Shown piece after piece: positions 15,500-24,662 of a DNA stretch of 64,000 nucleotides (position 1 is the first letter of the stretch; the number at the start of each line of letters is the position of its first letter). The translations under genes and the position numbers were made by a program. The notes below the pieces were generated by a model that was not told the DNA's origin, did no database searches, and saw nothing but the letters and a program-made list of their open reading frames with translations. This stretch comes from an uncultured delta proteobacterium (GTDB taxonomy: Bacteria > Myxococcota > UBA727 > VGSZ01): assembly GCA_963775425.1 (NCBI GenBank), contig CAVZJB010000011.1, positions 384,001-448,000 of the forward strand, written 5' to 3'.

Positions 15500-16522
15500 T
15501 CAGCGGATGCGCGTCCAAGCCGACAGCGATCCCGTGGGGCCGTCGACGCCGACGTCGTAGTCCGCGCGGCGGTTCTTCTGCTCGTCGGTCTCGTCGGGCG
15601 TGTCCACCTTCAAGAGATCCTCGCCGAAGCCGCGCGCGTAGATGGCGACCTTCACGCCCTTGTTGGCGAACCAACGCGCGATGGCCTCCGCGCGCCGCTC
15701 GGAAAGCGCGTGGTTCGACGACGACGAGCCCACGGTGTCGGTGAAGCCGGAGACGAACAGCTTGATGGAAGCGCCCGTCACCTTCACCGCCGTGGAGTAG
15801 CGCTTGATGGCGGTCTCGAGCTCCGGCAAGGCCTTGTTGAGCTTGGGCTCCTCGCTCGCGCGAACGTCGGCCTTGCCGGTCTCGAACTCCACCTCCTCGT
15901 GCGGGATGGAGATGTTGTAGGGGAACGAGTCCGACGACTGCGTCGCCGTGCTCGTGTCGGTGATGACCGTGTGGATGCGCAGCACCGGTCCGTCGGCGAG
16001 AGGCGTCCACGACACCGTCAGCGGCGTCCCCGCCTTGGCGCCGCCGAAGTCCTGCGAGGTGGTGGCGATCTCTTTTCCGTCGTCGCCGTACACCGCGACG
16101 TCGATCTTCTGCGTGTCGTGCTCGCTGGTGAAGGTGATGGAGCGCTCTTCGAGCTTCACCTCCTTCACGGCGAAGCGGAAGCCGGAGAGCACCTCGGTGG
16201 CGAACGCGAGCGGCATGGAGCCCGATGTGCCGTCATCGAAGACCACCGACAGAGAGCCCTTCCACGAGGCTTTGCCCGCCCTCTTCTGCGGAAGCGTGAA
16301 CACCAGCTCGCCGCCGCGCTCCTTGGGCCCGAGCCGCTGGTGCGCGCGCCCGGCGACGCTCCGCACGTCGAGCGTGCACGACCTCAAGTCCTTCTTCACC
16401 TTCACCGTCACCGTCGGCTGCTTGCCCACGGGGACGCTCGGGCTCAGCTCGAGCTCGACGTCGTTCGCCCGCGCACCGAGAGCGACACCGAAGACGAGCG
16501 CGGCTACACACACGTTGCGCAT
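15500..16522 (-). CDS. OmpA family peptidoglycan-binding protein
   Basis: Signal peptide MRNVCVAALVFG; FETGKA, GFTDTVG, NHALSERRAEAI, GFGE, NRR. Confidence 0.88.
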   Translation of the reverse strand: MRNVCVAALVFGVALGARANDVELELSPSVPVGKQPTVTVKVKKDLRSCTLDVRSVAGRAHQRLGPKERGGELVFTLPQKRAGKASWKGSLSVVFDDGTSGSMPLAFATEVLSGFRFAVKEVKLEERSITFTSEHDTQKIDVAVYGDDGKEIATTSQDFGGAKAGTPLTVSWTPLADGPVLRIHTVITDTSTATQSSDSFPYNISIPHEEVEFETGKADVRASEEPKLNKALPELETAIKRYSTAVKVTGASIKLFVSGFTDTVGSSSSNHALSERRAEAIARWFANKGVKVAIYARGFGEDLLKVDTPDETDEQKNRRADYDVGVDGPTGSLSAWTRIR

Positions 16523-16569
16523 GGCGTCGTCATACCACGAAGGCTGCACGTCGACGACGGCGGCACGGG

Positions 16570-17901
16570 TCAGCGAATGGTCACGGCGATCTCGTAGGGG
16601 AGGGCGCCCGTGAAGCCGGAGCTGCCCTTGGCCACGGCGACGAAGAACCGTCGCGCCGCCGTGCCGTTGTTCCTCAGGGACGCGTCGCGCGGCGACGAGC
16701 CGGTGCCGTCGACGAACGCGCACGCGCCGTAGGCCGACGCGCGGCTCGCCACTTCGCCGCTCGCGTCGAGGATGGCGATGCGCGTGTTGAACGCGTCGCA
16801 GTCGGTGGCGTCGCTCGTGGGGATGACCTCGACGCGCGCGCCGCGGCCGGGGGCGACGTCGAGGCCGTACACGTCGACGTCGTCGACGCTGTCGATGGAT
16901 CCCGACATGAACACGTCGCGTCCGTCGGCGGCCGCGAGCTCGGCGGTGGCGGTGGTGCCGTTGGGCTCCACCTCGCGCCCGCGATCCTCGAGGACGGCGA
17001 GCTGCTCGTGGAAGCCGGGGATACGGTCGGTGCGATCGAACTGGGTGACGGCGACCCAATAGGTGCCTGCCGGCAGGCTCTCGGTCATCACCGCGCAGCT
17101 CCCGATCCCGTTGAACGCCGCCTCCCGCAGGAGCGCGGCGTCGGGGTTGTTCGCGTTCACGCTGTCGCTGAACAGGCCGAAGAGGCTCGCGGGCGCGCCG
17201 GTGATGCAGTCGTCGGCGCCGCCGGCGTCGAACATCTCGATGCGCACGACGGACGGCCGGGCGAGCGCCAGCCAATAGGCGTCGTCCTCGGACCAGTCGG
17301 GGCCTCCGGTGGGATCGCGGCGCAGGTCGATGCTGCCCTTGAGGCTGAATTGGGTGTCCGACAGGTGCAGCGCGTTCGGGTCGGGGAAGTCGTTGAGGTT
17401 GCGCTCGTTGACGGCGCGGTCGAGGTGGCAGGTGGAGGAGCAGCCGTCGCCGCTCACGCGGTTTCCGTCGTCGCAGGCCTCGAGCGGATCGACCGCGCCG
17501 TTGCCGCAGAGGGACGGCAGCACGGGATCCACCGCCGGCTCGCCCTCGCCCTCTCCCTCGCCTTCTCCTTCTCCCTCTCCCTCTCCCTCTCCCTCTCCTT
17601 CACCTTCACCTTCGCCCTCGCCGACGAGGAAGCCGGTGGTGTCGTCGCCTTCGCCCTCGCCTTCGCCTTCGCCGCTGTCGCGCGGGATCAGCTGCTCGCC
17701 CTCGCCCTCGCCGGCGCCTGCGTCGTTCGCGCCGGGACGCGCGGGGGAGGCGGGGCGGCAGATGCCGGCGCCGTCGTCGCACACCTCGCTGCCCGGGCAG
17801 GCCTCGCCGTGCTGGCACGGGGTGATGCCGAGGAACACCTCGCACCCGCCGCTGAGGGCGGCGGCGGCGGCGACAAGGAGGGCGAGGGAGCTCGGGCGCA
17901 T
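16570..17901 (-). CDS. Lipoprotein with (GE)n linkers, myxobacterial Cys-rich repeat and PPC-like domains
   Basis: Lipobox SGGC; CGNGAVDPLEACDDGNRVSGDGCSSTC; EVEPNGT...DDVDVY. Confidence 0.8.
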   Translation of the reverse strand: MRPSSLALLVAAAAALSGGCEVFLGITPCQHGEACPGSEVCDDGAGICRPASPARPGANDAGAGEGEGEQLIPRDSGEGEGEGEGDDTTGFLVGEGEGEGEGEGEGEGEGEGEGEGEGEGEPAVDPVLPSLCGNGAVDPLEACDDGNRVSGDGCSSTCHLDRAVNERNLNDFPDPNALHLSDTQFSLKGSIDLRRDPTGGPDWSEDDAYWLALARPSVVRIEMFDAGGADDCITGAPASLFGLFSDSVNANNPDAALLREAAFNGIGSCAVMTESLPAGTYWVAVTQFDRTDRIPGFHEQLAVLEDRGREVEPNGTTATAELAAADGRDVFMSGSIDSVDDVDVYGLDVAPGRGARVEVIPTSDATDCDAFNTRIAILDASGEVASRASAYGACAFVDGTGSSPRDASLRNNGTAARRFFVAVAKGSSGFTGALPYEIAVTIR

Positions 17902-18152: not shown

Positions 18153-18635
18153 ATGTCGACGTGGTTCTTCGCCGTCGCGCTGGTCGTCGCCGTGGGAGGG
18201 GCGGCCGCGGTGGTGGCCTTCGAGAGCCCCACCCGCAGCGCCGCCGGCCTCATCACGCTGGTGGTCGGGGTGGCGGCGGCGGCGGGCGCCGCGGGCGCGC
18301 CGCTGGTGCCCGGCTTCGTCCTGTGGGTCGGCGGCGGCGGGATCGGGGTGCTCCTGCTCGGCGCGGTGCTGTTGTTGAACCTCGGCGAAGACGAGCGCGG
18401 GCGGCGGCGCTTCCGCCTGCGCGCGGGCCTCGCGCTGCCGCTGCTGGCCATCCTGTGGGCCGCGTTGGCGGCGCCGCTCGTGAGCGCGGTGCCGGACGCG
18501 GCGCCGGCGACGTTGACGTCGGGGCAGGTGGCGCAGGTCGTGTTGAACGACCTCGCGCTGCCGTTCACCGTGGGGCTCGTCGCGCTCGCAGTGGCGCTCG
18601 TCGTCGCCGTAGCCCTCGTCAGGCGGCGCACATGA
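18153..18635 (+). CDS. nuoJ: Divergent NADH-quinone oxidoreductase subunit J-like protein
   Basis: Five hydrophobic segments; SPTRSA and VGGGGIGVLLLGAVLLLNL resemble VYAGAIxVLFxFVxMLLNL; operon order. Confidence 0.65.
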   Translation: MSTWFFAVALVVAVGGAAAVVAFESPTRSAAGLITLVVGVAAAAGAAGAPLVPGFVLWVGGGGIGVLLLGAVLLLNLGEDERGRRRFRLRAGLALPLLAILWAALAAPLVSAVPDAAPATLTSGQVAQVVLNDLALPFTVGLVALAVALVVAVALVRRRT

Positions 18636-18949
18636 CGCCGCTCGAGCACATCCTCTTCACGGTCGGGGTCGGGGCGGGCGTCGCGCTCGTCGTCATCGGC
18701 TTCGGCGGGATCCTGCTGCGCCGCTCGGTGCTCGTCGTCGTGATGAGCGGCGCGGTGTCGATGCTCGGCGCGGCGCTGACGCTGGTGCTGCTCTCGGCGT
18801 CGCGCGGCGATGCCCGGGGCGTCGCCGTGTCGATGTTCATCGTCCTGCTCGCGGCGGTCTGGTCGCTGGCCGGCGCGGCGGTCGCGCTCGCCACGTATCG
18901 CCGCCGCGGCACCGAGAACCTCGACGAGCTCCGGGAGCTCCGAGGATGA
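18632..18949 (+). CDS. nuoK: Divergent NuoK-like protein
   Basis: MTPLEH...GILLRRS...YRRRGTENLDELRELRG; 105 aa, three TM segments. Confidence 0.8.
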   Translation: MTPLEHILFTVGVGAGVALVVIGFGGILLRRSVLVVVMSGAVSMLGAALTLVLLSASRGDARGVAVSMFIVLLAAVWSLAGAAVALATYRRRGTENLDELRELRG

Positions 18950-19011
18950 CGCGCGCTACGACGACGTGCCCGCGCGCGACGACGACGGCGCCGGCGACGA
19001 GGGCGACGTGA
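18946..19011 (+). CDS. Possible 21-aa translational-coupling mini-ORF
   Basis: ATG overlaps the nuoK stop (ATGA); TGA overlaps the nuoL GTG (GTGA). Confidence 0.35.
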   Translation: MTRATTTCPRATTTAPATRAT

Positions 19012-21017
19012 TCGGCTTTCACGACGACCGGCTCGCGCTCGTGTTCTACGCGCCGTTGCTCGCGGCGCTCGTGGTGTTCGCGTTCGCGCGGGCGCCGTGG
19101 CTGTGGGCGCGCATCGTCGTCGCGTTCGCCGGCCAGGCCGTCGCGCTCATCGTCGCGCTGGCGTCGGCGCAGAAGATCCTCGTGCGCGGGGGCTTCGCCC
19201 TCGTCGACATCGACGGCTGGTCCGGCGCGCGCATCGACGGCGTGGACCCGCTCGGCCTCGTGCCCGCCATGCTCACGCCCGGCACCGCCCCGCTGCTCGT
19301 CGGCGTCGCGGTCGCCGGCCTGCTCGCGTTCTGGTTGCTCGTGCCCGCGGCGCTCGAGGCGCGCTCCTCGGCCCCCCTCGCCGCGGTGCTCTCGGCCACG
19401 GCGTTCACGGCGATGCTCGTGGTCGCGCGCCGCATCGAAGGCGTGTGCGCCGCGTTCGCCCTCGCGGGCCTCGCGGGCTTCGCGCTCCTGGTCTCCTTCC
19501 GCCCGGCGCGCACCGACGTCGAGGGCGCGCTCCGCGCGTTCCTCCTGCAGCGCGCCGGCGACGCGCTCCTCCTCGGCGCCGTCTTCATCGTCGGGGCCGG
19601 CGCCGGCGGGCTCGACCTCGAGAAGCTCCCCGAGAGCGCGCCCCTCATCGACCCGTGGACGCGCGCGGCCAGCGGCCCGCTGCAGGGCTTCCCCGCGAGC
19701 GACATCTGGCTCCTCGTCGCCGGCCTCGTCGTCGCTGCGGCGGCGACGCGGCTCGCGTTCGGCCCGCTCCTGCCCCTCGTGCGCGACGCCGTCGGCGTCC
19801 CGGGCCCCGCCGTCGGCCTCGCCCACGGCGCCTGCTTCGTCGGCGCGGGCCTCATCCTGCTCGTGCGCACGACGCCCATCCTCTGGCTCGCGCCCGGCGC
19901 GCTCGCCGCCCTCGGCTGGATCGCGGCGGCGTCCACCGTCGTCGCCGGCCTCGTCGCGCTCGCCGGCCGGGACCTGGTGCGCATCGACGTGCACCTGCTG
20001 TGCGGCTTCGGCGCGCTGGCCGCGTTCGCGCTCGGCTGCGCCGACCTCGGCACCGCCGGGCTCGCGGTCACCGCGCTGCTCGTCGCAGCGGTGCCGCTCT
20101 GCGCCACCACGGGCGTCGTCGTCGACGCCACCGGCCGCGCCGACCCCCACGGGCTCGGCGGCCTCGAGAAGTCGTTGCCGCGCACGCACACCGCGCGCCT
20201 GCTCACCACCGGCGGGCTCTTCGGGGCGCTGCCGCTGTTCGCAGGCGGCGCGATCGTCGCGCAGTCTTTGGCGCGCGCGCTCTTTTCGCCGTGGCTCGGG
20301 CCGTGGGCCGGCGGGCTCGTCGTCGCCGGCGCCGCCGTCCTCGCGCTCGCGGCGTTCCGTCCGCTGCACCTGGTGTTCACCGGCTCCGGCGAACGCGAGC
20401 CGCTGTCGCGGACGGCCGTGGAGCCCCGCTTGCTGCGAACGCTGCCGCCGCTCCTCGTGGCGCTGCCGCTGCTCGGCGCAGGCTTCCTCCACATCCCCGA
20501 CGGCGTGCTCGCGATGCTGCCCGTGCGCGTCAGCTACATCTCGCCGGCGGGGTCCCTGTGGCTGCCCGAGCGGGCCGTGCTCCACCCGCTGCGCGAGCAC
20601 GTCCTCGCCGCGTGGCGGCCGCCGCACACGGGGCCCGTCACCGTCGCGCTCGTCGCCTTCGCCGCCTTGACCGCCGCGTGGCTCGTGTCGGTGGCGCTCT
20701 ACAAAAACGGCCCGCGCAAAGCCCACGGCAAGCTCTTCGGCGGCGCGCGCAGGCAGAGGGTCGTCGCCCTCCTCGCCAACCTCGCCGGCCGCGAGAGCCA
20801 GGTGGCCAAGGGGGTCGGCGAGAGCGCGGCGCGGCTGTCGCGCCTGATCGCCACCAACCTCGCCCCGGGCGTGCTCGACACGTTCCTGCGCCGCATCCCC
20901 GCGTTGCTCGGCGTGGTCGCCGGCGCCGTCGTCCGCTTCGTGGCCAACGGCAGCGCCCAGCGCGGCGTCGTCGTCGCGCTGCTCGTGCTCGCGGTGCTCC
21001 TGTGGGTGCTGCGATGA
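19008..21017 (+). CDS. nuoL: Divergent NuoL-like antiporter-type subunit
   Basis: GALRAFLLQRAGDALLL, RDAVGVPGPAVGLAHGA, LGGL, FRPLHLVFTG; many TM segments. Confidence 0.75.
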   Translation: MIGFHDDRLALVFYAPLLAALVVFAFARAPWLWARIVVAFAGQAVALIVALASAQKILVRGGFALVDIDGWSGARIDGVDPLGLVPAMLTPGTAPLLVGVAVAGLLAFWLLVPAALEARSSAPLAAVLSATAFTAMLVVARRIEGVCAAFALAGLAGFALLVSFRPARTDVEGALRAFLLQRAGDALLLGAVFIVGAGAGGLDLEKLPESAPLIDPWTRAASGPLQGFPASDIWLLVAGLVVAAAATRLAFGPLLPLVRDAVGVPGPAVGLAHGACFVGAGLILLVRTTPILWLAPGALAALGWIAAASTVVAGLVALAGRDLVRIDVHLLCGFGALAAFALGCADLGTAGLAVTALLVAAVPLCATTGVVVDATGRADPHGLGGLEKSLPRTHTARLLTTGGLFGALPLFAGGAIVAQSLARALFSPWLGPWAGGLVVAGAAVLALAAFRPLHLVFTGSGEREPLSRTAVEPRLLRTLPPLLVALPLLGAGFLHIPDGVLAMLPVRVSYISPAGSLWLPERAVLHPLREHVLAAWRPPHTGPVTVALVAFAALTAAWLVSVALYKNGPRKAHGKLFGGARRQRVVALLANLAGRESQVAKGVGESAARLSRLIATNLAPGVLDTFLRRIPALLGVVAGAVVRFVANGSAQRGVVVALLVLAVLLWVLR

Positions 21018-21166
21018 GCGGCGCCGCCCCCGGGTCCGCGACCCGCCCCGTCGACGCGCGCGCCGTGGCTCGCGCGGTATCTCCCGCCGTGCCTCCGGCC
21101 GTGTCTCCCGCCGTGCCTCCGGCCGTGTCTCCCGCCGTGCCTCCGGCCGGAGGGCCGCCCTCGTGA
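21014..21166 (+). CDS. Possible 50-aa translational-coupling mini-ORF containing a 3 x 24-bp repeat
   Basis: ATGA overlap with the nuoL stop and GTGA overlap with the nuoM start; encodes (VSPAVPPA)3. Confidence 0.4.
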   Translation: MSGAAPGSATRPVDARAVARAVSPAVPPAVSPAVPPAVSPAVPPAGGPPS

Positions 21167-22785
21167 TCCCCGGCCTCCCCGATCCCTGGATGCTGCTCGT
21201 CGTCGCGGCGCTCCCCGTGGCGGGCGCGCTGTTCGCGCTCGTGATGCCCGGGGGCGACCGGCTCGCGCTGCGCTACGCGGGCATGGGCACGTCCGTCGCC
21301 GCGGGCATCGCGGGGCTGCGCGCCGCGTTCCTCGCCGTCAGCGCGCCCGTCGCCCTCGACGTCGGCGGCGTCCGCCTCTCTCTCGACGGCCTCTCCGCGC
21401 CGCTGTTGCTCTCGCTCGTGGTCGCCGCGCCCATCGCGCTGCGCTCGGGCGCGCCGCGCATCTTCGAGCGCACGCAGTTCTACGTCGTCACCGTGCTGTT
21501 CGCCGAGGGGCTCCTCGCCGCGGCCATCGTCGTCGACGCGCCGCTTTTGCGCCTCGCCGCGGCCAGCATCGCGGCGGTGCCGCTGTTCGCGCTCGTGGCG
21601 TTGTTCGGCGGGCCGCAGCGGGGGAGCACCACGCTGTCGGCGGCGATGATCTGGCTCTTCGTCGACATCGTGGCGCTCGCGGTGGTGGCGTGGCTGGCGG
21701 CGCGCGCCGGCGTCGACGCGTCGCGCGCGAGCGTCACCGACCTCGCCACGGCGGCGCGCGCGCTCCCGCACTGGCTGTCGCCCTGGATCTTCCTCGCGCT
21801 GGTGGCGCCGGGGCTCGTGCGGCTCGCGGCGGGGCCGTTCTCCGTGTGGCTCGCGTCGTTCCTCGACGAGGCGCCGGTGAGCGCGGCGGTGCTCGCGGCG
21901 TGCGGCGCGGCGCCGCTGGGCGTGCAGATCACGCTGCGCATCGCGGTGCCCACGTGTCCGCAGGGGCTGCTGGCGGTGCTCCCGTGGATCGCGGGCATCG
22001 GCGCGCTCTCGGTGGTGCTGTCGGGGATCATCGCGCTCGGCGAGCGCGACCTGCGACGCTTGCTCGCGCAGCTCCTGCAGGCGGCGGGGGCGACGTCGGC
22101 GGTGGCGCTCCTGAGCCTGGGCGACGACGCCGTCGCCGCGGGCGCGGTGCACGTCGTCGTCACCGGCGCCGCGGCCACGCTCGCGCTGACGTCGGTGGAG
22201 GCCGCCGAGCGGCGCTTCGAGACGCGTGACGTCGTCGAGCTCGCGGGGCTCGGCGGCGCGACGCAGCTCCTCGCCGCGTTCTTGATGCTCGGCCTCGTGA
22301 TGCTCGTGGGCCTGCCGGCCGTGGGCGCGGGGACGACGCTGTGGGCGGTGGCGTCGTCGGTGACGCGCGCGCCCGGGCTTTCGGCGTCGGGCGTGCAGCC
22401 GCTCTCGTCGGCGTGGCTGGCGGCGGCGCTCGCCGGCGGCACCGTGCTCGGCGCCGCGGGTGTCGCGGCCGCGGCCCGTCGCATCCTCGCCCCGCCGCCG
22501 CGCCGGTCGCGCCGCGCGCGTCCCCTCGAGCGGCTCACGGCGGGGCAGTCGGCGCGCCTCTTCGTCCCGGCGATCGTCGCCGTCGCAGCGGGCCTCGCCG
22601 CCGGCGTCCTCCTCGACGGCGCCCGTGGCAGCGCCGCCGCGCTCGCCGCCGAGGCGCGCGCGGGCGCCGGCGTCCACGTCGTCGACACCCCCCCGTTCGC
22701 GCCCCCCTCGAGCGCGCCCGCGGACGCGTCATCGGGATCGTCGTCGGACGCGTCGTCGGGATCGTCGCCGGGGGCCGCGCGATGA
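21163..22785 (+). CDS. nuoM: Divergent NuoM-like subunit
   Basis: LSLDGLSAPLLL, VPLFALVALFGGPQR, PFSVWL...EAP, DLRRLLA, GLP. Confidence 0.75.
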   Translation: MIPGLPDPWMLLVVAALPVAGALFALVMPGGDRLALRYAGMGTSVAAGIAGLRAAFLAVSAPVALDVGGVRLSLDGLSAPLLLSLVVAAPIALRSGAPRIFERTQFYVVTVLFAEGLLAAAIVVDAPLLRLAAASIAAVPLFALVALFGGPQRGSTTLSAAMIWLFVDIVALAVVAWLAARAGVDASRASVTDLATAARALPHWLSPWIFLALVAPGLVRLAAGPFSVWLASFLDEAPVSAAVLAACGAAPLGVQITLRIAVPTCPQGLLAVLPWIAGIGALSVVLSGIIALGERDLRRLLAQLLQAAGATSAVALLSLGDDAVAAGAVHVVVTGAAATLALTSVEAAERRFETRDVVELAGLGGATQLLAAFLMLGLVMLVGLPAVGAGTTLWAVASSVTRAPGLSASGVQPLSSAWLAAALAGGTVLGAAGVAAAARRILAPPPRRSRRARPLERLTAGQSARLFVPAIVAVAAGLAAGVLLDGARGSAAALAAEARAGAGVHVVDTPPFAPPSSAPADASSGSSSDASSGSSPGAAR

Positions 22786-24251
22786 CGCCGACGACGCTCC
22801 AGGCGATCTTCGCGCCGGCGATGTGGCTCGGCGCCGCGCTCCTGTGCCTGCTGTTCGAGGCCGCGGGGACCCCCGTGGGGGCGCGCAAGCGCGGGGCGCG
22901 CACGCACCTCGCGTGGATCATCGGCCTCACCGGGGGCGTCATCGTCGTCCACGCGCTCACCAGCTGGGCCGCGGCGGCCACGCCCGCGTCGAGCGCCACC
23001 GGGCTCATTCACGACCGCGGCGGCCTCCTCGCCTCCGCGGGGATCGCGCTCCTCGTGATCGCCGCGCACACCGCGGCGGTCCCCGGTCTGCGCGGGATGG
23101 GCGAGGAGCGCGGCGAGATGAGCGCCGCCTTCGCCGCCGTCGGCGCCGGCTTCAGCCTCGTGGTCATCTCCGCAAACCTCCTGTCCTTCGCAGCCGGGCT
23201 CGTCCTCGTCGTCGCCGCCGTCTCTTTGGTGGCCGCGCCCGATCGCGACGGTCCCCACGGGATCGAGGCGGCCACCAAGGCCGTCGTCGGCGCCGGCCTC
23301 ACCTTCGCGCTCTTGTCGCTCGCGCTCGTCTTCGTCTTCACCGCCGCCGGCGACGCGAGCCCCGCGGGCCTCGGCCGCGCCTTGCAGACCGACGCGTCGC
23401 TCGCGCTGCCCGCCGTGGTCCTCGTCGTCGTCGTGTTCGCCCTCATGCTCGGCACGGTGCCGCTGCACCAGAAGTTCGTCGACGTCGCCCACGGCGCCTC
23501 CGCGGCGTCCTCCGGCCTCCTCGCCGGCGGCGCGCTCCTCGCCGGCGGCTGCGCCGCGCTCCGCTTCGTCGACGGCATCGCGCTCGCGGGCCCGCGCCCC
23601 GAGCTCGCCCAGGGCTTCGCCGTCCTCGCCGCGCTCACGCTCATCGGCGCGCCCATCGCGTCCCTCGACCAGACGCGCATCGCCCGCGTGGTCGCCTACG
23701 TCGTCGTCGTGCCCGGCGGCCTCGTGCTCGCGGCGGCGGCGGCGCAGACGGCGGACCCGTCGGGCGCGGTGGCGGCGTGGCGCGCGGGGACCGCCGCCGC
23801 GCTCACGGGCGCGCTCGGCGCCTCGGCCGCGCTCCTCGGGATCCTCGTGCCGCAGCTCGACCCCTCGTCGACGTGGGAGGACTGGGCGGGCTTCGGCCGT
23901 CGCCGCCCGGTGATGGCCGCGCTCCTCGTCTACGCCGTGGCCACCGCCGCCGGCGTCCCCGGCACCGCGGGCTTCGTCGCCCGCCTCGAGGTCGCCCGCG
24001 CGTGCGTCGACGCCCACCTCGACGCCCTCGCGCTCATCGCGGTGGCGAGCGCCGCCATCGGCGCCGCGCCCCTCGTGCGCCTCGCGCTCTTCCTGTTCGC
24101 CAAGCACCAGCCGCCGGCGAAGAAGAAGGAGCCGCCGCGCATCCGCCGGCCGCTCTTGATGGTGTCGTTCACGCTGCTGGTGGTGCTCGCCGCGGTGATC
24201 GCCATCGCGCCTTGGCTGCTCGACGGCGTGCTCGAGGCCGCGCGCCGCTGA
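22782..24251 (+). CDS. nuoN: Divergent NuoN-like subunit
   Basis: RGE, GIEAATK, VPLHQKFVDVAHGA, RVVAY, AGVPGTAGFVAR. Confidence 0.75.
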   Translation: MTPTTLQAIFAPAMWLGAALLCLLFEAAGTPVGARKRGARTHLAWIIGLTGGVIVVHALTSWAAAATPASSATGLIHDRGGLLASAGIALLVIAAHTAAVPGLRGMGEERGEMSAAFAAVGAGFSLVVISANLLSFAAGLVLVVAAVSLVAAPDRDGPHGIEAATKAVVGAGLTFALLSLALVFVFTAAGDASPAGLGRALQTDASLALPAVVLVVVVFALMLGTVPLHQKFVDVAHGASAASSGLLAGGALLAGGCAALRFVDGIALAGPRPELAQGFAVLAALTLIGAPIASLDQTRIARVVAYVVVVPGGLVLAAAAAQTADPSGAVAAWRAGTAAALTGALGASAALLGILVPQLDPSSTWEDWAGFGRRRPVMAALLVYAVATAAGVPGTAGFVARLEVARACVDAHLDALALIAVASAAIGAAPLVRLALFLFAKHQPPAKKKEPPRIRRPLLMVSFTLLVVLAAVIAIAPWLLDGVLEAARR

Positions 24252-24281: not shown

Positions 24282-24662
24282 TCACGCGCACAGGCGGGAG
24301 ACGGCGTCGACGACCGCGCCCGCGCCGGCGCCCTTGCCGAGGACGCAGGCGCAGCCGACGTCGACGGCGAGCACGTTGAGCTCGTCGCCCGGGTGCTCGG
24401 TGTAGATGACGACGGGGATGCGCTGCGTCTGCGGGTCGGACTTGAGGCGGGCGGCGGCGGCGAGGCCGTCGAGGCGGGGCATCGCGAGGTCCATGATGAT
24501 GACGTCGGGGTGGCGCTCGAGCGCGGCCTTCACGCCGGCGGCGCCGTCGAGCGCCACGGTCACGGCGAAGCCGGCGTCGGCGAGCGCCGCGAACAAGCCG
24601 TCCACGGACTCCGGGAAGTCGTCGACGACGAGCACGAGCTTGACCGTGGACCCGCCCTGCAT
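24282..24662 (-). CDS. Single-domain response regulator (CheY-like)
   Basis: VLVVDD, PDVIIMDLAMPRLDG, IPVVIYT, LGK. Confidence 0.88.
   Translation of the reverse strand: MQGGSTVKLVLVVDDFPESVDGLFAALADAGFAVTVALDGAAGVKAALERHPDVIIMDLAMPRLDGLAAAARLKSDPQTQRIPVVIYTEHPGDELNVLAVDVGCACVLGKGAGAGAVVDAVSRLCA

Follow-up and report, generated by a model that had tools for sequence, protein, structure and literature searches.

Relatives of respiratory complex I are usually distinguished by the redox module that they carry, and to our knowledge all of them are thought to move ions by the same Lys/Glu axis. The Mrp antiporter (CPA3) retains this Lys/Glu chain, while the Ehr complexes combine hydrogenase-type subunits with two antiporter-like proteins. 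Ehr is described, in the part of PMC4758237 that deals with group 4 hydrogenase subtypes, as devoid of the canonical Ni-Fe ligands. The extra nuo2 gene set of Streptomyces lacks NuoCDEFG and NuoL, and a passage of PMC9239103 suggests that it forms a hybrid with the canonical set. Here we analyse a 64,000-nucleotide stretch of an uncultured Myxococcota genome (contig CAVZJB010000011.1, positions 384,001 to 448,000; referred to as the window and numbered from its first letter), which carries a cluster of nuoJ, K, L, M and N homologues. We consider it fairly probable that the cluster encodes the J-N membrane arm of a lineage-specific, redox-dead and pump-dead complex I paralogue, kept for a non-catalytic role. 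As far as can be judged by alignment, every redox and proton-transfer element tested in this paralogue is replaced. The five genes are plus-strand open reading frames (ORFs) at 18153-24251 that contain no internal stops according to ORF lists and frame-specific GC, in a region of ~77% G+C:

18153-18635, plus strand: NuoJ-like subunit, degenerate, 160 aa (PF00499, Oxidored_q3, 41 bits)
18632-18949, plus strand: NuoK-like subunit, degenerate, 105 aa (PF00420, Oxidored_q2, 54 bits)
19008-21017, plus strand: NuoL-like subunit, 669 aa, with the NuoL C-terminal extension (PF00361, 34 bits)
21163-22785, plus strand: NuoM-like subunit, 540 aa (PF00361, Proton_antipo_M, 41 bits)
22782-24251, plus strand: NuoN-like subunit, 489 aa (PF00361, 75 bits)

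A first-pass annotation of the window had described five intact, contiguous ORFs in J-K-L-M-N order with conserved loop motifs. Both points stand: the ORF lists and Pfam matches agree with the former, and the motifs RAGD, EAATK, DLRRL and ELRG are present in the J-N proteins. The K-like protein retains a C-terminal RRRGTxNLDELRELRG motif. All five proteins pass the Pfam gathering scores, at low values of 34-75 bits. The best curated NCBIfam family of each is the respective Nuo subunit, with the equivalog cut-offs missed by a wide margin (J-like, 24 vs 154 bits; L-like, 82 vs 556; M-like with TIGR01972, 85 vs 264; N-like with TIGR01770, 113 vs 333), and the K-like protein scores 43 bits against NCBIfam cut-offs of 57-101. 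The 82-bit match of the L-like protein to the NuoL model NF005141 spans profile positions 121-608 of 615. An AF2 model of this protein, the only one modelled singly, was obtained with a pLDDT of 76.6 and a pTM of 0.84, and its best Foldseek matches are to E. coli NuoL over the full length (TMq 0.70, ~680 aligned columns). Source records label these proteins 'hypothetical' or, by automatic annotation, 'NADH-quinone oxidoreductase subunit N'.

As in the Mrp antiporter, L/M/N-, K- and J-like proteins make up a membrane assembly with no redox module in the operon. However, the L, M and N proteins of the window are nearest to NuoL, NuoM and NuoN rather than to MrpA or MrpD, and the J and L genes are separate. 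The NCBIfam Mrp models score below the Nuo models, with at most 35 bits for L and at most 38 bits for N. An Mrp antiporter was rejected as a candidate on the basis of these scores and of the loss of the charged chain. Small extra membrane ORFs are absent between J and N, the MrpE, F and G families themselves not having been searched for.

To assign residues, orthologue profiles were aligned to solved E. coli NuoN, NuoL, NuoK and NuoJ and, for NuoM, to plant Nad4; the experimental structures behind the profile alignments came from E. coli, Thermus and plants. Using E. coli numbering, E36 and E72 of NuoK are replaced by Ala and Trp in the K-like protein (aligned to 3rko_K), and E55 and Y59 of NuoJ by Leu/Val and Gly/Leu in the J-like protein. 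The L-like protein has Ala for E144, Arg for K229, Ala, Val and Ala for H334, H338 and K342, and Val and Ala for K399 and D400, and retains D178. In the M-like protein, the Glu of transmembrane helix (TM) 5 is replaced by Ser, the TM7 Lys by Arg, the TM8 Lys by Pro and the TM12 Glu by Leu. The N-like protein has Val for E133, Met for K217, Leu for K247 and Arg for K395. What canonical complex I requires, namely the Glu/Lys chain, NuoK Glu36 and Glu72, and NuoJ E55 and Y59, is therefore not found in the J-N set. The profile alignments support the first-pass proposal that the charged residues are lost, with the correction that three of the supposedly lost lysines are conservative replacements by arginine, which retain the charge at L-TM7, M-TM7 and N-TM12.

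The same positions were compared in nine family members (eight for N) and in three canonical controls, namely the nuoJ-N cluster of another genome of the phylum (G063) and the sets on contigs C16 and C13 of the window's own genome. The TM5 Glu is missing from L in 9/9 members, from M in 9/9 (one has Asp) and from N in 8/8. Four replacements are invariant: Lys to Arg at L-TM7 (9/9), M-TM7 (9/9) and N-TM12 (8/8), and Lys to Pro at M-TM8 (9/9). The G063 control has the canonical residue at all 13 positions, and the own-genome controls deviate at three positions only: Thr replaces the TM5 Glu in the C13 NuoL, Leu replaces the TM7 Lys in the second C16 NuoM, and a 437-aa protein encoded on C13 cannot be matched to the NuoM columns for TM8 and TM12. 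In 25 clusters of N-like proteins taken from a 5.8-billion-protein collection, the TM5 Glu/Asp, TM7 Lys/Arg and TM8 Lys each occur in 0/25, and the TM12 Arg in 25/25. The canonical proton-transfer chain, which had been reported as absent from the membrane arm, is gone family-wide.

With fixed Arg residues at L-TM7, M-TM7 and N-TM12 and a Pro at M-TM8, the central charged axis looks as if it had been locked in a non-titratable form. These Arg and Pro replacements suggest that a buried polar axis has been retained as a fixed structural feature. The invariant Arg residues could also be taken to line a path along which the module still moves ions (anions or Na+), as a re-tuned Mrp-like transporter, and the MscS-like and Na_H_Exchanger-family genes found in the operon of the D-like gene (see below) fit such a role. 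We regard this as improbable, given that the TM5 acids, the TM8 Lys/His and the TM12 Lys/Glu of L and M have all become apolar residues or Pro, that both NuoK glutamates and the NuoJ E55/Y59 pair are gone, and that Mrp models are outscored by Nuo models.

Six related genomes share the J-K-L-M-N order, again free of internal stops, with protein identities of 27-66%. We searched a sample of 401 genomes of the phylum, in which families and genera are coded, with a profile of the L-like protein. Matches of at least 300 bits occur in 13 genomes, all belonging to families f1, f3 and f4 of one uncultured Myxococcota order, and the cluster retains its gene order and open frames across these 13; the next match below the family is a canonical NuoL at 208 bits. 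The phylum tallies include one genome (G195) with a canonical-level match only, on which no claim is based. A locus search with the N-like alignment returned 7 loci, all already known from the relatives. Within genus g3, dN/dS values (NG86) are 0.16-0.42 for J, 0.26-0.47 for K, 0.26-0.31 for L, 0.23 for M and 0.19 for N. The neighbouring genes rpsP (0.12-0.19), trmD (0.24-0.27) and rimM (0.38-0.62) give comparable values, and an OmpA-like neighbour lies in a similar range. The J-N cluster is under purifying selection and constitutes a maintained protein family.

The very low scores against curated Nuo models are what would be expected if nuo genes had been duplicated and the copies were turning into pseudogenes. 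Such neutral decay is hardly credible here: frames are intact at all loci, in three coded families and at 27-66% identity, the K to R and K to P changes are fixed and identical family-wide, and dN/dS is similar to that of the neighbours. Neutral decay was rejected because dN/dS of 0.16-0.47 combined with intact frames indicates genes that are maintained and not decaying. This agrees with the first-pass view of a selected assembly, as the same substitutions are fixed across family members and dN/dS is not near 1. As the catalytic residues have been lost and selection nevertheless keeps the genes, the proteins must now do something else.

The window's own genome (G000; 94.55% complete, 18 contigs) contains three nuo-related sets. 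The first is canonical and lies in one piece on contig C16 (758-770 kb, locus L032), as the operon nuoABCDIHJKLMMN. This operon is without nuoEFG and has two NuoM-like genes, and its NuoI-like gene is long, at 314 aa. The second set is canonical and scattered: C12 carries nuoA-B-C-x-D, nuoG-H and nuoI, and C13 (31.2-35.3 kb; L033:5238-9347) carries nuoJ-K-L followed by a single M/N-like gene, which is the only further antiporter-like gene there and encodes the 437-aa protein mentioned above. The nine PF00361 matches in the genome divide into four on C16, two on C13 and three in the window, which suggests two antiporter-like subunits for the scattered second complex I. A DAB (DabA/DabB) CO2 uptake system was rejected as a candidate, as the genome has no match to the DabA partner family PF10070.

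The third set is degenerate and comprises the J-N cluster of the window together with loci on C6 and C16. The arm had been annotated as standing alone. Locally this holds, and no NuoA, NuoD or NuoH match was found on the window's contig; genome-wide it does not, with degenerate A/B/C/D-like and H-like genes present at two other conserved loci. The C6 operon (46.3-53.3 kb) has the order A-like, B-like, C-like, D-like, MscS-like, membrane protein, Na_H_Exchanger-family, the last three (539, 418 and 444 aa) lying directly 3' of the D-like gene (C6 46.3-50.5 kb; L039:2290-6459). The A-like protein has 3 TM and no Pfam or NCBIfam match. The cysteine-free B-like protein (144 aa) scores 21 bits with Pfam and 48 with NCBIfam (cut-off 116), the C-like protein 112 and 96 (cut-off 122), and the D-like protein, which has an acidic N-terminal extension of 60 residues, 113 and 201 (cut-off 360). 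The H-like gene (312 aa, 101 bits; NCBIfam 82 vs a cut-off of 305) is located on C16 at 1.036 Mb, 3' of two M16 peptidase genes. For the D-, C-, B- and H-like proteins, the best curated models are the corresponding Nuo subunit, followed by Fpo.

The degeneracy of this quinone (Q) module matches that of the membrane arm. Both H38 and Y87 of Thermus Nqo4 align to Pro in 7/7 D-like orthologues as well as in G018, an outlying member of the family. These residues (NuoD His38 and Tyr87) are given as the quinone head-group ligands in the relevant part of PMC4758237. In an unrooted FastTree phylogeny of 105 rows, assembled from the 150 best matches in a 1.84-billion-protein library and 7 rows of our own, the D-like proteins group together in a single clade (SH-like support 99) that comprises 34 rows, 25 of which have Pro at both positions. 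The four Cys columns of the genome's own canonical NuoB, which we take to be the cluster N2 ligands, contain no Cys (0/4) in 6/7 B-like members; G018 has all four. In the H-like protein, the acidic TM5-6 loop of the genome's own canonical NuoH is degenerate.

Compared with the minimal 11-subunit complex I (NuoA-D, H-N), the family shows a putative one-to-one homology for ten subunits, that of the A-like protein being tentative, with the long NuoL-type C-terminal extension and the loop motifs kept. It differs in that, outside G018, NuoB is devoid of the N2 cysteines, and in having a Pro/Pro site in NuoD, no recognised NuoI, a replaced Glu/Lys chain, and scores below all curated cut-offs. Subunit-by-subunit best matches place its origin in Nuo-type complex I, yet it appears to work like no relative described so far. 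Ehr, as presented in the part of PMC4758237 cited above, is likewise a complex I relative without catalytic ligands. It is set apart, on the definition given at the outset, by the presence here of three antiporter-like subunits, one of them NuoL-like, alongside J-, K- and A-like proteins, and the best models of the D-, C-, B- and H-like proteins are Nuo and not hydrogenase. Streptomyces nuo2 resembles the present case in being an extra, incomplete nuo set whose function is unclear in the PMC9239103 passage. That passage does not state a loss of catalytic residues, whereas they are lost here; furthermore, the present family has a near-complete subunit set of its own and persists without canonical complex I in one genome (G013). 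At the level of listings and abstracts, the literature yielded no account of a nuoJKLMN or complex I set in Myxococcota that stands alone or is catalytically dead.

Several observations bear on whether the three loci belong together. A D-like protein with the N-terminal extension occurs in 14/401 genomes of the phylum, which are the 13 holders of the L-like protein plus G010 (76% complete), and an H-like protein above 100 bits, exceeding the canonical level, in 8 of these. Gene order is conserved across families: B-C-D-MscS-TM-exchanger is kept in G013 and, in part, in G006 and G002, and the M16-M16-H order recurs in G013, with M16-H in G006, whose contig ends there. G013 (96% complete, 30 contigs) has the J-N-like cluster as well as a D-like operon and an H-like gene, and no canonical NuoH, NuoK, NuoD or NuoI, nor any antiporter-like match beyond the cluster, was found in it. 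The first-pass annotation had suggested an uncoupled arm swapped onto complex I. Such an arm would replace NuoJ-N of the canonical complex under some conditions. The window's genome would offer two canonical docking sets for such an arm (the C16 operon and the scattered C12/C13 set), and the L-like protein retains both fold and C-terminal extension. However, the family owns degenerate Q-module and H-like genes, and G013 argues against the swap because it retains all three loci without canonical complex I; we therefore judge this explanation to be very unlikely.

The outlying member G018 (2.0 Mb, from a small-genome family) is split in the same manner into [A-B-C-D] and [J-K-L-M-N] loci (L045:638-2843 and L046:6000-11098). 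Its D site is Pro/Pro and it shows R/R/P/R at the four fixed positions of L, M and N, but its NuoB-like protein still has the four cysteines, and this mix of kept NuoB Cys and otherwise lost sites suggests a stepwise loss. The same substitutions are seen in its D, K, L, M and N proteins; its L-like ORF is only 419 aa, and a canonical NuoH/NuoI pair is present in addition.

A complex prediction for the H-like protein with the J-, K- and A-like proteins scored 0.50, whereas the highest of 3 controls scored 0.02. The mark used is reached by 58/80 solved complexes and by 2/110 mismatches, but just 7 of the 80 reach it with a score of 0.60 or below. At least 86% of contacts are shared between runs, and partner pLDDT is at least 64. 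The predicted complex weakly supports an association of the four proteins, although passing the mark may reflect likeness only, because complex I has already been solved.

The cluster is surrounded by housekeeping genes (upstream rpsP, a KH protein gene, rimM, trmD and an RNA methyltransferase gene; downstream rpoZ, ksgA and mutM). Its immediate flanks are as first annotated, with a divergent lipoprotein-like gene on one side and a convergent receiver-domain gene on the other; they are listed here with a repeat from inside the cluster:

15500-16549, minus strand: OmpA-family lipoprotein, 349 aa, divergent (PF00691, 48.9 bits)
16570-17901, minus strand: lipoprotein-like gene, 443 aa, N-terminus ending in ...LSGGC, weak DUF4215
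21061-21149, no strand: 24-nt tandem repeat between L and M, 3.7 copies (TRF score 143)
24282-24662, minus strand: single-domain response regulator, convergent (PF00072, 67 bits)

A homologue of the OmpA-like lipoprotein (42-54% identity) adjoins the J-N cluster in 6/6 close loci (L013-L018), and no such neighbour was found at the clusters of genus g4, G063 or G018. The 443-aa gene, whose DUF4215 match reaches 25 bits against a cut-off of 27, sits between the OmpA-like gene and J in the window's genome only, the other loci being without it. The response regulator is not a conserved neighbour, and the genes downstream of the cluster differ in other loci.

This conserved OmpA-like neighbour lends itself to a different explanation, namely that J-N form a truly stand-alone membrane complex, acting as a scaffold or as a transporter with new chemistry, and that the degenerate A-D and H genes belong elsewhere. 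The three gene sets are nowhere adjacent in the loci seen, genus g4 is without an H-like gene, and the Arg conserved at three axis positions could serve such a complex. On the other hand, the L-like and D-like proteins share both their degeneracy and their phyletic range (13 vs 14 of 401 genomes), and G018 has the identical split organisation. Separation of the loci is moreover normal in the window's genome, because its canonical complex I genes are scattered over several loci too. Separate JKLMN loci are also ordinary in the phylum, as illustrated by the G063 cluster. In that genome (locus L029:5817-12383), J-K-L-M-N genes with fully canonical Glu/Lys residues occur without adjacent nuoA-I, and they probably encode the membrane part of an ordinary complex I whose genes are scattered. 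We consider a stand-alone complex rather unlikely, though still worth carrying as an alternative to the paralogue.

A number of points weigh against a ten-subunit catalytically dead paralogue. The three gene sets were not found side by side at any locus, and a metagenome scan with the D-like alignment yielded only 4 contigs, too short to give useful context. In genus g4, J-N-like and B/C/D-like genes are present, and no H-like gene was found there; an H profile search of the g4 genomes G003, G005, G007 and G009 returned only canonical NuoH at 95-104 bits. The full set may accordingly not be obligatory, or H may be supplied from elsewhere. A NuoI-like partner specific to the family was not recognised, the best match in G013 scoring 32 bits, and the A-like protein is named NuoA-like only by its position, its size and its alignment to the genome's own canonical NuoA. 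The co-distribution of the loci is observed among kin and could come from shared ancestry alone, and the dN/dS ratios were obtained at 95% G+C in third codon positions (GC3), which could bias dS. Finally, the Arg at three axis positions leaves a charged path, which might still allow ion transport of some kind.

If the paralogue is as we propose, the ten A-D-, H- and J-N-like proteins would assemble into one L-shaped complex. Such a complex could presumably neither bind N2, nor reduce quinone at the canonical site, nor relay protons. Our best guess is that it would act as a structural or conformational membrane module or as a scaffold. The putative partners, namely the MscS-like channel, the exchanger, the M16 peptidases and the peptidoglycan-binding OmpA-like lipoprotein, may hint at a role in the envelope or in ion homeostasis, which is a guess. 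A more specific version, in which a complete ten-subunit complex I has turned into a mechanical or conformational platform built on its L-shaped scaffold and locked Arg axis, and works with these partners, for example in sensing or regulating membrane tension or ion homeostasis, is put forward tentatively and with considerable doubt. Were this platform to exist, it would be a bacterial parallel to the catalytic proteins recruited as structural parts of the mitochondrial respiratory complexes.

A redox-dead and pump-dead paralogue would represent a natural 'all sites mutated' complex I, separating the residues needed for folding and assembly from those needed for catalysis, a distinction on which the fixed K to R and K to P changes bear directly. 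It would also be a rare multi-subunit bacterial pseudo-enzyme. Automatically annotated genes of this kind should not be counted as respiratory capacity when metabolism is predicted from metagenome-assembled genomes.

Within the cluster, the J/K and M/N gene pairs overlap by 4 nt each, and an alternative start of the L-like gene is possible at 18966. The L-M spacer of 146 nt contains the 24-nt tandem repeat listed above; unlike this spaced pair, the L and M genes of the relatives abut or overlap. A promoter and terminator scan was uninformative, with no sigma-70-like site and 3 terminator-like sites vs 1.2 expected. In G005, antiporter-like, weak NuoH-like, second antiporter-like and NuoD-like genes stand in a row on contig C57 (47.4-53.4 kb); this cluster may encode a hydrogenase-related (Ehr or Hyf-like) complex with no relation to the J-N family. 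A second 24-nt tandem repeat (2.1 copies, 22721-22771) falls within the 3' end of M, giving the protein a Ser/Gly-rich tail that the orthologues do not have. A hexamer-based repeat (CTCTCC and variants, ~10 copies) is located at 17539-17622, inside the 443-aa minus-strand gene.

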